Shown: one piece after another, positions 3,288 through 7,657 of the stretch
Numbering within the stretch: the first letter of the stretch is position 1
Layout: the number at the start of each line of letters is the position of its first letter
Assembly: GCA_026026165.1 (NCBI GenBank)
Contig: JAPEUD010000028.1
Span: 124,001 to 188,000 of the forward strand
Source of the DNA: Sarea resinae
Lineage: Eukaryota
DNA length: 64,000 nucleotides
Direction: 5' to 3'
Made by a program: the position numbers and the translations under genes
The notes under the pieces: generated by a model
The model's database searches: none
What the model saw: the letters and a program-made list of their open reading frames with translations, nothing else
What the model was told of the DNA's origin: nothing

Positions 3288-4736
3288 CTAGAAGAGAGAC
3301 AGGAGGGCGGACGCTCCCGACTCGCTGCTGACGTAAAGCACGTCGTGGCTGTCGGGAAAGCCGTTGAAGCGGGTCGCCGAGCACTTGGTGTAAGCTGTCG
3401 ATGATCAGCATCAAGTTCATCGTTAATCCCGAATGGAGATCAAACTTACCTCCCATGTCTTCGAAATAAAGCCAATCGCCAACATCCAGCACCTCAGGGA
3501 ACGTGCAGCTGGCAGCAATGCAATCGATTCCATCGCAGGTTGGACCCCAGACCGAGTAAGCAGTGGCGGGCTCCGCAGCAAAATCCGAAGCATTCCGACC
3601 ATGCAAGAAGCGTTGACCGCACTTGAGAATGCGCGGGACGGGCTGTTGGTGGTCAAACATGATGCTGGAAAAGTTGCCGTACACGCCATCGTTCATGTAA
3701 AGCATGTAAGACGATGCTCCAGTAGTTTGATCTGCAACCGTGCGACGGGCAATGACACTGCAGGCGAGCGTAAAGGCCGATGAGACGTAGTATCTACCGG
3801 GCTCCGCAATGACGCGGATGTGCGGAGGGAAGTAGTCATCCAATGCTTGCGAAAGAACACTGGCCATGGCCTCGAAGCCCTCGTTGCAGAAGCCGCCCCC
3901 GACATCGAGAGTCCGCATGTTGAAGCCCACATCAGCTGCCTGGTCGAAGACTTGTCTGGCGTCACGGACAGCTTTGACAAAGGAGTTCGGATCGGATGCC
4001 CCCGAGCCGACGTGGAAGCTGACACCCACAACGTTCAAGCCCAGTTCCTTGGCCAGTTCCAGGAGTTCTTGAGCCTGGTCCATTGAGGCTCCAAACTTCA
4101 AGCTGAGGCGGCACAAGCTGGAAGAATCATCGGTAAGGATGCGAAGGTAGAGCTCAGCATCGGGGAAAAGCTCCTTCGTCTTGTAAAGCTCGTCGGCATT
4201 GTCGAAAGTCATTTGCTTCACGCCCTCCTTTGCAGCATAACGAACATAGGACTTGGTCTTGCAGGGCTGAGCATAGATGATCCTGGACGGTTCAATTCCC
4301 ATCTTCAAGACTTGTTCAATTTCGCTCTTGGAGGCGCAGTCGAAGCCAGTGCCCAGTTCGGAGAGGAGCCGAATGACCTGAGGGTCTGGGTTGCATTTGA
4401 CGGCTGATCGATATTAGCGGAGTTTCGCTGCTACAAAGCAAGCTCCTTACCATAAAAAGGCCTCACTCGCTTGAGGTTCATCTTCCAGCGAAGGTGCTGT
4501 CGGTAGACCTCGCCCATATCAGCCACGAAGAAGGCGTCTTCTTCTCCGGCCGAGCAGACATCTTGATCGATCTTCTCCACACGTTCTTTCAAGGCCTCAC
4601 CAATCACTTGTTCCGGGGTGGGACTAGGGACTTCATACTGTTGGACAGTTACATTCGCTGTCTTGCTGATCGACAAAGCTCTATTGAACCTTATCGGGCA
4701 GTACGTTTCGGTGGTTGTGATGGCCGAAGGTGCCAT
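3288..4736 (-). CDS. spe1: Ornithine decarboxylase (3 exons)
   Basis: AFFVADMGEVYRQHLRWK...PFY|AVKCN (PLP lysine), GFDCAS, IIYAQPCK, GVSFHVGSG, LDVGGGF, IAEPGRYY, WGPTCDGID, EDMG|AYT...FNGF. Predicted introns at about 4405-4450 and 3395-3449; stop TAG at 3288-3290. Confidence 0.97.
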
Positions 4737-4789
4737 AACCTTGTGGTCAGGCGTTGAAGTTGAATTGAATAGAAACGGTGGAGACGGTG

Positions 4790-5026
4790 TTAGGGAGGAC
4801 GGGAACGATCCTGCCCGGGGCTGATCTGGGGACGAGACCTCCTCGACTCTTCCTCGGACGGAGGAAGAACCGCAGAGAACGTGCTATGCGGCAGCTGGGT
4901 GGGTTCGGGAGACAAAGGAAGTGGTGGAATCAAACTGAAAAGCAGATTCTCAACGTGGGACAGTGAGGACAGCAGTCGGAGGTGGAAGGTCGTTGAGGAT
5001 GTCTGGGTGTGGGCGAGTTGACTCAA
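4790..5026 (-). promoter_or_regulatory. Putative non-AUG upstream conserved coding region (uCC) in the ODC 5' leader
   Basis: AUG-less open frame (5092 to 4790) ending ...FSAVLPPSEEESRRSRPQISPGQDRSRPP-TAA about 55 nt before the ODC ATG. An in-frame TTG at 5026 has a strong context (TCCAAA-TTG-A). The architecture matches the uCCs reported for fungal ODC mRNAs. Confidence 0.7.
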
Positions 5027-5212
5027 TTTGGAGAGAAACTGGCGTGGTGGCCAATGGGGCCGTAGTGAGTTGGTTGCCTTTGAAGAGACCAAAGGCAGTC
5101 ACTGGGAGAATTGCTGTGAGCGGTCTAGATGAAGGTTCGACACGGTCAGCCTCTGCATCAGGGGGGCGGAGATGAAGATGAAGGGGGCGATTGGCGGGGT
5201 ACAAGTGAAAAT

Positions 5213-5218
5213 TTATAG
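5213..5218 (-). promoter_or_regulatory. TATA-like box upstream of the ODC leader
   Basis: TATAAA on the minus strand followed by a pyrimidine-rich tract, about 480 nt upstream of the ODC ATG. Consistent with a long 5' leader. Confidence 0.45.
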
Positions 5219-7657
5219 CGCCGGGAACTCGAGGATATACACACCGATCGAGGGCATGGACCAGAAGCAAGTGATCTCACACGAGAGCGGTATCAAGACC
5301 TCCGAGACTGCTGGGACTGGATGCTGAACGAGTGAAGAACGGAGACAATGGGAGACGGATCGAGGGGGATATGTAGGTCTGGAGAAGGGAGCTGGGGAAC
5401 AATTCAGAGTGTGACTGGCAATAATGGCGGCGAGGTCAAGCGATGACACAACCCGTGCAAGGTTGCAAACTGCAGGACGAAGTGACGGGTACGAGGCGAC
5501 GCTCGCGGTCGGCGACGCGACAGCAGCGAAAATCTCATCGGGAGAGGTCACGGGTACTTGTTGCGCACCCACACTCCCCACCGACGATGAGATTATTATT
5601 ACTCCGGAGTATCATCTCGTTCTCGTAAGGAGCCCCATCCCCATCCGCATCCACGGTGCAAAATGCCTCACTCCATCGCCCATCACCCCCGAGGGCCAAC
5701 CAGCAACGGCTCACTATCAAGCTCGCAGTCCTCTACTCCATCGTACTCTCACAGCAACAGCAACAGCAACAGCAAGTAGTGGCCATGACCCAACATGGAT
5801 CACTGGAGGATCACTGGAGGATCACGTAGCAAGTCGGCCGCTCCTCGACTTCCCAGCTGGCCGTCCGTCTATCAAGTCTTGACAGGTTTCAGCTCGCGGC
5901 GTCGTGGGAGCCAGACGGTGGGATTTGACCCCGTAGATCTGTGGCGGTGTGTCGGGGAGGGCGTCCCTGGGCGCGACAAGTAAACATGGCACTTTTGACA
6001 GCGTCGCGAAGTCAAAGCGATGCAGCTTCTGCTTTGATTGGTTTGTCTCTCTCTTTCTAGATGACATCGAGTTCATTCCCCGGTTTGCATACGCGGTCGG
6101 GGTTGGGGTTGGGTTGGGCAAGTGTCTACGCTGTACTCTATTCGATTCGTGTCTGTCTGATTGATTCGATTCGGCCTCGACGCCACCTGCACTCACCCAT
6201 GATGGCATGCGCAGCAGCACCTTCAGTGGTCGACGGCGGACTCGTCCCAGTCAGTGCCACCGCTGGAGGCCTGCGCAGTGCCCTTGTGGATGCAGTACTA
6301 CGTAGAAGTTGCTCTTGCTTTTTCTTCCTCTTCTCTTCTCTTCTCTTGGCCTTCGATTTCTTTTCTCGGTGGTCTTCTCTTCCGTGGCAAGGTGCATCGA
6401 GGGCATGGGTGCTGCATCGATGGCGCATACTACTGCGTATGTACTCCGTAGAGACTCAGCATGCAGGCGGCGGGCGTTGCAGCGCCCCTGTCGGTCACTG
6501 ACGACATCGGAGACTGCTCGGTCCCCATGCCTGTTGGGGCTGCAGGCGGTGAGCGAAAAAGCAAAGTCCACGTCGAGCCAACGGCCGAATGCCATGATGC
6601 TGCATGGTCGAGCCTGCAGCGGTGGTCCTTGGCCGTGCAGGGCGAGGGAGAGAGAGACGACGTTGTCCGTACTACTCCACGTCGAGAGGGGAGCACTCGC
6701 CGTCCGTCTGGAACGGGCGGGAACCAGCGGTTTGTATATCTACTACCTACATAGTGCCCCGACCGCCGTCGTCGACACGAGCAACACGAGCATCCCATTA
6801 TTATTCCATTCCATTGTCCATGCATCTGTCGACTGACTCTGGTCATCTGCACGACTCGTGGTCGTCTGCAAATATATTGCATATGGCGGCCACTCGACTT
6901 GTTCGCCGTTCGATGCAATCAATCAATCAATCTATCTATCTATCGACCTGACTCTCCTGATGTTCTCTTCTGACTGCTGCGGGTCGGAGCCGGAAGTCGT
7001 CTTATCCACCGTCCTGATGGCGATGCCTCGACTCGGTTGCCTCGGTCGCCTCGGTCGGCCATCTGTGGTCTCATGGTCGTCTGTTTGGAACATCCAAGAC
7101 CAGTGTCGAGAAACAAAAGCAAACAGGCAATGAATCCCTCATCTGTGCGATGCACTATTAGTTTCGAAACAATCGATCCATGTCAATATCATGATCATGA
7201 CCAAGTCCTATCCCCATGTGCTCTGGAGGACACCTCATCTGTACAGGCTATTCGAGATCGAGATTCGTAGTGCTGGGAGTGGTATTTGCTCCCTCTCCAG
7301 TCGGGGAATCAGGTGCAATCAACTGCCCCTATCATTATCGAGGTAGAACTCAATGGTGAAGATGATCACCAGCTTCTTGGAACAATATGATCCCCAGGAA
7401 CTGATTTGAAGTAGTGGTAAAAGACTGACCGTATTTCACGCCCACATCAGTATCGAGCCCCACGACTTGGCGATTCGAAAATCCCACGTTTCGCGACTCG
7501 CGACCGAACGTCCCTCGGTCCCCGCAACATCAACACCCTGACCATCTCCATCACCAAAATCTCATCTACCACCCAATTATTCCCCTTCCTCCAACATCAG
7601 CCATCCAATCCATCTCCGTGCCTCTGAGCTCACATATCGAGCACCACCGTAACTTCA

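Follow-up and report, generated by a model that had tools for sequence, protein, structure and literature searches.

A predicted non-AUG upstream coding region, with a putative overlapping ACG-started frame, in the ODC leader of Sarea resinae

Does the AUG-less frame that precedes the ODC gene of Sarea resinae represent a translated regulatory element of the kind known as a polyamine-sensing upstream coding region (uCC), and if so, where would its translation begin and which of its codons are under selection? The window analyzed here is the whole 64,000-nucleotide stretch of contig JAPEUD010000028.1 (positions 124,001 to 188,000; GenBank assembly GCA_026026165.1), and all coordinates below are window positions. 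On the minus strand, the frame at 5098–4793 runs for 102 codons from stop to stop, contains zero ATG codons, and terminates with ...RSRPP followed by TAA at 4792–4790; the spacing from this stop to the ODC ATG at 4736 is 53 nt. This reading of the window sequence confirms the original prediction of an AUG-less frame ending Pro-Pro-stop within the ODC leader. Length by itself would not set the open frame apart from chance, as nearby noncoding DNA contains stop-to-stop frames of 162–176 codons; conservation, and not open-frame length, is the decisive evidence for the uCC frame. Examples of chance frames in the neighboring noncoding DNA lie at 6251–6739 and 6306–6836.

The gene downstream of the leader is identified as ODC by its Pfam domains: the exon that follows the intron matches Orn_Arg_deC_N (1.1e-76) and Orn_DAP_Arg_deC (8.1e-28). 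The splice from 4451 to 4403 is joined by one 151-nt RNA contig with 0 mismatches. RNA support derives from a single run, in which 0.07 of the sampled words were present; its coverage extends to the exons of ODC and to 37 conserved nucleotides at 4861–4897, but not to the rest of the leader. The 3′ boundary of ODC exon 2 was inferred from the GTAAGT at 3449 alone. Coordinates of the gene and of the observed and predicted leader features are collected in Table 1.

Table 1. Observed and predicted features of the ODC leader and gene, in window coordinates
Feature	Position	Strand	Description or basis
ATG-free leader	4737..5155	minus	No frame contains ATG over the 422 nt preceding the ODC ATG
Candidate hairpin 1, GCCTTTG / 7-nt loop / CAAAGGC	5076..5096	minus	12 nt before the ACG; 75.9% paired
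Putative uORF1, −1-frame ORF	4950..5063	minus	ACG 5063–5061, A at −3, G at +4; 37 codons; TGA 4952–4950
Candidate hairpin 2, GGCC / 5-nt loop / GGCC	5049..5061	minus	Begins at the G of the ACG; 85% paired
uCC proper (uORF2)	4790..5026	minus	Predicted start TTG 5026–5024, 78 sense codons, TAA 4792–4790
Pro-Pro-Pro CCA CCT CCG	4977..4985	minus	ACG-frame codons 27–29; 35/45 distinct leaders
Conserved C-terminal peptide block QLPH...PP	4793..4897	minus	Last 35 codons of the uCC; alignment, pN/pS
15-nt block CAGCTGCCGCATAG(C/G)	4883..4897	minus	Wobble positions fixed too; last base C in the window; codon counts, pS
Possible hairpin inside the uCC, CTTCCTC / 5-nt loop / GAGGAAG	4849..4867	minus	Weak support
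Pro-Pro-stop CCT CCC TAA	4790..4798	minus	Presumed termination stall site; P-P in 45/45 distinct sequences
ODC exon 1	4451..4736	minus	ATG at 4736–4734; 70 loci encode relatives at 44–69% identity
ODC intron 1	4404..4450	minus	47 nt, GT..AG; spliced RNA contig
ODC exon 2	3450..4403	minus	Pfam PF02784 1.1e-76, PF00278 8.1e-28

To avoid circularity, relatives were fetched using ODC exon 1 only, which yielded 70 metagenome loci at 44–69% identity. A homologous uCC frame was recovered in 63 of these 70 loci (tblastn with the uCC peptide, E ≤ 0.01; best approximately 1e-16), and most of the seven loci lacking a uCC match contained no upstream DNA. Together with the window, the 63 loci represent 45 distinct uCC sequences; counts reported here are of distinct sequences irrespective of kinship, with the number of lineages estimated by eye at approximately 17. 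None of the 45 sequences contains an in-frame ATG, and all of them end in [R/K/E]-P-P directly before the stop. That stop is TAA in 44/45, is followed by C in 32/45, and lies 39–207 nt upstream of the ODC ATG. From start to end of the uCC, 38 distinct sequences (3032 codons) contain 0 stops in the uCC frame as compared with 90 and 120 in the other two frames, and gap lengths are divisible by three in 27 of 28 close pairs. The leaders are also depleted in ATG overall: the ATG-free stretch before the ODC AUG, counted in all three frames, spans 278–947 nt (median 450) in 38/38 measurable leaders, where the ATG density of the flanks predicts about 53 nt. Querying 1.84 billion protein representatives with the uCC peptide (phmmer) returned 10 matches, 9 of which represent this element, with the ending QLPH...[R/K]PP; the peptide had no match in Pfam, and a word-indexed protein search gave seven candidates, none of which scored.

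Peptide-level conservation in orthologous leaders, which the original prediction had anticipated, is present and is concentrated toward the C-terminus. The leaders share the block QLPH[R/K]..(V)LPL.EE.SRR...G...[F/Y][K/R]PP-stop, and across 15 pairs the last 7 codons have a pN/pS of 0.33 (pS 0.56) in the uCC frame versus 3.13 and 1.18 in the other frames; for the last 12 codons of the same number of pairs, the corresponding values are 0.44 versus 1.56 and 1.11. All four synonymous codons are in use at both terminal Pro positions, and the basic residue before them switches among AAG, AAA, CGN, and AGR. Across the entire uCC, pN/pS is just 0.67 versus 1.09 and 0.74 in the other frames, a weak coding test that was replaced by tests on separate segments; the middle of the uCC peptide appears nearly unconstrained. 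Within the C-terminal block, the QLPH[R/K] and VLPL..EE.SRR stretches have fixed wobble positions as well, and some of the apparent peptide conservation would therefore reflect constraint at the nucleotide level.

The TTG at 5026–5024, which had been proposed as the start, is found in the window as described, in the context CCAAA-TTG-A and 78 codons before the stop, and comparison among leaders supports its role. In the corresponding column of 38 aligned distinct sequences, 33 carry a near-cognate codon (TTG 17, ATC 12, ATT 2, CTG 2), every one of them preceded by A at −3 within a yCAAr context. Co-variation of its first and third letters keeps the codon exactly one step from ATG in every case, and neither ATG itself nor TTC or CTC is ever observed. 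Start-to-stop distance is 75–78 codons in 24 of the 33 near-cognate sequences. A scan of 130 offsets across 24 indel-free leaders identified just two at which a near-cognate codon with a purine at −3 occurs in 24/24: the TTG 5026 column and an ACG located 37 nt upstream. Stops in the uCC frame occur within the 12 codons upstream of the start in 16/33 sequences, often 3–6 codons away, and in none of 35 within the 17 codons downstream. Evolutionary bracketing of this kind supports TTG 5026 as the predicted uCC start. The start column lacks a near-cognate codon in the remaining 5/38 aligned sequences; two of these (L013 and L015) have a TTG 76 codons before the stop, but with T at −3.

Measured from the conserved start, the uCC of the window would be 78 codons long, as compared with 102 codons between stops, and the upstream part is stop-closed in 16/33 relatives. 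The 100-codon extent given in the original prediction is correct as a count over 4790–5092 from the in-frame TTG at 5092; the extent itself is incidental. TTG 5092 was rejected as a uCC start, being in frame and open in just 2 of the 18 relatives that carry its motif.

The second invariant offset belongs to a putative ORF in the −1 frame (uORF1) that overlaps the uCC proper (uORF2). Its ACG is invariant in 25/25 aligned leaders, with A (22) or G (3) at −3 and G at +4 in 24, and it lies 37, 34, or 31 nt upstream of the uCC start in 31/33 leaders, always in the −1 frame. The ACG frame encodes the conserved peptide ..R.H.DI(L)ND(L)PPP (..DILNDL-PPP over 29 codons), in which the prolines fall 72–81 nt after the ACG and are followed by a variable, unconserved tail of 0–33 codons to the stop. 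This ACG/PPP module was found in 35/45 distinct leaders; four loci were too short, and six assessed leaders (L018, L021, L034, L040, L054, and L061) are without it, so that the module is not universal. From ACG+36 to +87, variability by phase is 0.281, 0.261, and 0.505; the highest value belongs to the wobble position of the ACG frame. Values of pN/pS in the overlap are 0.20 for the ACG frame, 1.44 for the uCC frame, and 2.93 for the third frame. Each Pro of the PPP uses all four codons among the 24 indel-free leaders, and the uCC frame reads these as H, R, L, or P.

The uCC-frame peptide from TTG 5026 to approximately 4977, part of the originally proposed product, is not conserved as such; since the overlap is selected in the ACG frame, the 'TQTSSTTFHLR' part of the uCC-frame peptide is not what is conserved. 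The first ~17 codons after the TTG appear, from these comparisons, to be selected in the −1 frame and not in the uCC frame. We consider it quite probable that the element is the uCC of a Pezizomycotina-type ODC mRNA, a regulatory frame that is translated despite lacking AUG, and that it comprises two overlapping uORFs in series, not one frameshifted product.

The absence of the ACG/PPP module from some leaders bears on a different and rather unlikely reading, in which the conserved core would comprise the C-terminal ~36–45 codons, with initiation either diffuse or at some other near-cognate codon, for example the conserved CTG at ~4975 that follows the PPP. The six leaders without the module do keep the C-terminal block, three of them (L018, L034, and L040) in open frames of just 64–72 codons, and selection on the uCC-frame peptide is detected in the C-terminal part only. 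A CTG or GTG is likewise present at offset +88 in 19/24 leaders; however, a purine at −3 accompanies 0/19 of these near-cognates. A C-terminal core is also at odds with three properties of the +37 offset: the uCC frame is held open from that point against expectation, the boundary of uCC-frame stops falls just upstream of it, and letters 1 and 3 of its codon co-vary, remaining always one step from ATG.

Two overlapping uORFs are probably the correct arrangement of the ACG and uCC frames, and are favored over a single frameshifted product, to which we assign a low probability. Such a product would start at ACG 5063, proceed in the −1 frame through DILNDLPPP, shift by +1 after a polyproline stall, and end at the PP-stop, in an antizyme-like and polyamine-sensitive manner. 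Antizyme is likewise part of a polyamine autoregulatory circuit with two frames in +1 relation, and its polyamine-stimulated +1 frameshifting is established (PMC5009743). In the fungal leaders, the ACG is invariant and its context is better than that of the TTG/ATC codon; the shift needed to enter the uCC frame from that of the ACG is exactly +1 in 31/33; and the first ~17 uCC-frame codons, with their pN/pS of 1.44, lack peptide selection. In three leaders (L025, L026, and L029), the stop of the ACG frame immediately follows the PPP, resembling a shift site at a stop codon. However, whereas the shift site of antizymes is conserved and lies at the stop of ORF1 (UCC_UGA in most; PMC5009743), none is conserved here: the ACG-frame stop occurs anywhere from 0 to 33 codons past the PPP, and the tail is unconserved. 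A frameshift would also leave three observations unexplained. At +37, 24/24 leaders retain a near-cognate codon whose −3 base is A. In 35/35 leaders, no stop interrupts the uCC frame between that codon and the PPP, as compared with 12–17 expected; synonymous shuffles of the ACG-frame peptide predict 16.9/35 open frames with ODC codon usage, or 11.8/35 with uniform usage. Finally, the Leu before Asn in the ACG frame is encoded by CTC or CTT only (25/25), and the four Leu codons that would place TGA or TAA in the uCC frame, used in 0/25 leaders at this position, are found in 13/20 at the next Leu.

Beyond the two overlapping frames, the leader contains signs of constraint at the nucleotide level. 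In the 15-nt block CAGCTGCCGCATAG(C/G), the individual codons are strongly fixed (CAG in 39/45, CTG in 41/45, CCG in 42/45, and CAT in 45/45), and 15 pairs contain 0 synonymous differences at 55 synonymous sites, as compared with a pS of 0.56 that these pairs have over their last 7 codons. Codon bias cannot account for these fixed wobble positions, nor does either peptide explain the constraint. The block places an invariant TAG in the ACG frame. No conserved long-range pairing partner was recovered for it, the best RNAduplex sites being scattered among 40 leaders.

Three small hairpins predicted in the leader receive partial support. Hairpins 1 and 2, which flank the ACG, are together 79.5% paired versus 26–51% when the partner is slid, and their covariation score was reached by 0/500 shuffles; these structures, as well as the third, were deduced from the sequence of the window itself and are favored by that choice. 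Hairpin 1, in which 5 of the 7 pairs vary on both sides, is present in both the MFE and centroid folds; for hairpin 2, 13 sequences have U-A and six have C-G as the innermost pair. For the possible hairpin inside the uCC, which both the MFE and the centroid fold of the window leader likewise contain, 92.5% of cells are paired versus 56–75% with the partner slid; column shuffles give 91.3%, and column composition would therefore explain most of the pairing of this 9-bp register. Folding of the window leader as compared with shuffles gives z = −2.15. RNAalifold recovered a 5-bp stem in the C-terminal block (−1.16 kcal/mol), and a search of 4600–5400 on both strands with Rfam covariance models returned 0 matches at E ≤ 1.

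That the region is untranslated, its conservation reflecting RNA structure or a DNA/RNA binding site and its open frame a by-product, is highly improbable: the 15-nt block with its zero synonymous change and CAGCTG palindrome, the partly supported hairpins, and a leader that folds better than its shuffles would fit such a reading, but wobble-phase variability and low pN/pS in two specific frames, interchange among the Pro, Arg, and Lys codon families, 0 stops in the uCC frame versus 90 and 120 in the others, indels in threes, almost nothing from RNAalifold in the C-terminal block, and the lack of an Rfam match all argue against it.

The uCC with its overlapping ACG frame can be compared with elements already described. 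The original assignment to the known ODC uCC agrees with the account of Pezizomycotina leaders in the discoverers' review (PMC2811004), and the window element appears to add one new example to the ODC uCCs that Ivanov and colleagues described, a kind already known. Per that review, Pezizomycotina ODC leaders carry uCCs of ~100 codons that are mostly non-AUG, with putative AUU, UUG, or ACG starts and two adjacent prolines near the C-terminus (PMC2811004). The window element is alike in its position in an ODC leader, its lack of AUG, its near-cognate codon in good context, its C-terminal Pro-Pro, and the concentration of conservation near the C-terminus; it appears to differ in length, its predicted start lying 78 codons before the stop and the part beyond that start being open in some species only. 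In Neurospora crassa, the leader region containing the uCC represses ODC ~30-fold, of which ~3-fold is translational and partly relieved by polyamine depletion; at the time of this 2009 review, the role of the uCC in polyamine control of ODC in filamentous fungi had not been directly interrogated (PMC2811004). Animal and fungal uCCs, which the original prediction had described together, are probably of independent origin (PMC2811004). The section of the review on these leaders makes no mention of an overlapping −1-frame ACG/PPP ORF or a wobble-invariant 15-mer. Neither these two features nor the 78-codon start is described in the literature covered, in which the 2008 primary work is represented by the review.

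For mechanism, the leader can be compared with the uCC of vertebrate antizyme inhibitor 1 (AZIN1) mRNA, where an eIF5A-dependent stall at PPW and the resulting queuing raise initiation at a weak start (PMC9082881). Both are non-AUG uORFs with a proline-rich C-terminus; for AZIN1 this stalls ribosomes at high polyamines (PMC9082881, PMC2811004), and here the likeness is one of sequence. AZIN1 has an AUU start and PPW-stop (PMC9082881), a combination absent here: the window has TTG (ATC in relatives) and RPP-TAA, and the relatives end [R/K/E]PP. The fungal frame further differs in its length of 75–78 codons in most relatives. AZIN1 also has conventional AUG uORFs beside its uCC, whereas the fungal leader is AUG-free and its second ORF is non-AUG and overlapping.

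The mechanism proposed for the fungal leader is extrapolated from review summaries of the AZIN1 uCC and of leader experiments in N. crassa. Most scanning 40S subunits would pass both weak starts, and ODC would be made. At high polyamines, eIF5A would be unable to relieve polyproline or Pro-Pro-stop stalls, and ribosomes would then stall at the PPP of uORF1 and at the PP-stop of uORF2. The stalled ribosomes would block scanning, queuing would raise initiation at the weak starts, and ODC synthesis would fall. The PPP lies 44 and 81 nt from the two starts, distances that do not fit cleanly to a 30-nt ribosome queue register.

We regard it as an even prospect that the fungal ODC leader is a two-frame, two-sensor device, consisting of a short ACG ORF in strong context with PPP, a long ORF with a weak TTG/ATC start and Pro-Pro-stop, and a 15-nt wobble-invariant element. 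In that case, two serial stall sites and the choice between overlapping non-AUG starts would both respond to polyamine and eIF5A status; and, should this arrangement also be absent from the 2008 paper, it would change how a textbook polyamine-sensing element is understood to be built across Pezizomycotina. The comparison among leaders shows selection on the upstream third of the presumed uCC peptide to act in another frame, one that carries PPP, the classic eIF5A-dependent motif. Standard annotation would leave the leader blank, in the place where the main translational control of the first polyamine-synthesis enzyme is predicted to reside. The window instance is ordinary for its family, and its value lies in the comparison behind it: the start, the PPP frame, and the 15-nt element offer precise mutants for polyamine control of ODC in filamentous fungi.

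A proline-containing uORF of another fungal gene provides a further comparison. Vindu and colleagues reportedly described, in 2021, a uORF of the Saccharomyces cerevisiae polyamine transporter HOL1 with a conserved C-terminal Pro-containing motif beside its stop, which is said to stall termination in an eIF5A- and polyamine-dependent manner. That uORF is reportedly AUG-started and very short, and thus differs from the ODC uCC in its start and length as well as in the gene it precedes.

The overlap itself can be compared with the tiny and small uORFs of plant AdoMetDC, in which the leader of a polyamine-pathway gene likewise contains two uORFs overlapping in different frames, and the choice between uORF starts sets the number of ribosomes on the inhibitory peptide (PMC2811004). 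The plant uORFs have AUG starts, overlap minimally, and are much shorter; in the fungal leader, both predicted starts are non-AUG, the overlap extends over ~25 codons (77 nt), and polyproline is present in both frames.

Among 41-45 distinct relatives, a 15-nt block within the uCC (the AUG-less frame of the ODC leader that ends in Pro-Pro-stop) is invariant at its wobble positions as well; the block includes the palindrome CAGCTG and, read in the -1 frame, gives a TAG that does not vary. This constraint is accounted for by neither the uCC peptide nor the -1-frame peptide. A search of the relatives' leaders for a conserved pairing partner of the block found none. Two RNA contigs from a wood-decay metatranscriptome match solely 4861-4897 (minus strand), with 3-4 mismatches, and depart from the window sequence outside it; this conserved block appears to be present in transcripts of relatives.

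Sequence features upstream of the ODC coding region (window coordinates)
Feature	Position	Strand	Remark
TATAAA	5217-5212	-	sequence
Hairpin GCCTTTG/CAAAGGC	5076-5096	-	small; 5' of the invariant ACG
Hairpin GGCC/GGCC	5049-5061	-	small; starts at the last base of the invariant ACG
15-nt block CAGCTGCCGCATAG(C/G)	4883-4897	-	within uCC; wobble positions also fixed
Potential pairing CTTCCTC with GAGGAAG	4849-4867	-	arms complementary

The arms of the potential pairing within the uCC encode the LP.. and ..EE of its conserved peptide, and pairing is retained despite different sequence in relatives (CCCTCC/GGAGGG in L013; CTCTCCC/GGGAGAG in L025); this retention is mostly attributable to composition.

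The ACG/PPP module, an overlapping -1-frame ORF that begins at an invariant ACG and contains Pro-Pro-Pro, is absent from six relatives that keep the C-terminal uCC block (L018, L021, L034, L040, L054, and L061); some lineages have therefore either lost the module or never acquired it. Of these six, L018, L034, and L040 show a shorter open frame, of 64-72 codons. In L025, L026, and L029, the -1-frame ORF stops right after the three prolines (PPP-TAA), so that a polyproline-stop terminates both uORFs. The hairpins beside the ACG show some compensatory changes among relatives, such as GCCTTCG/CGAGGC in L019.

The closest upstream ATG (5158-5156, minus strand) opens a potential 19-codon AUG uORF, and would be a candidate uORF start if it lies within the transcript; the stop of this frame, TGA at 5101-5099, also bounds the uCC frame.
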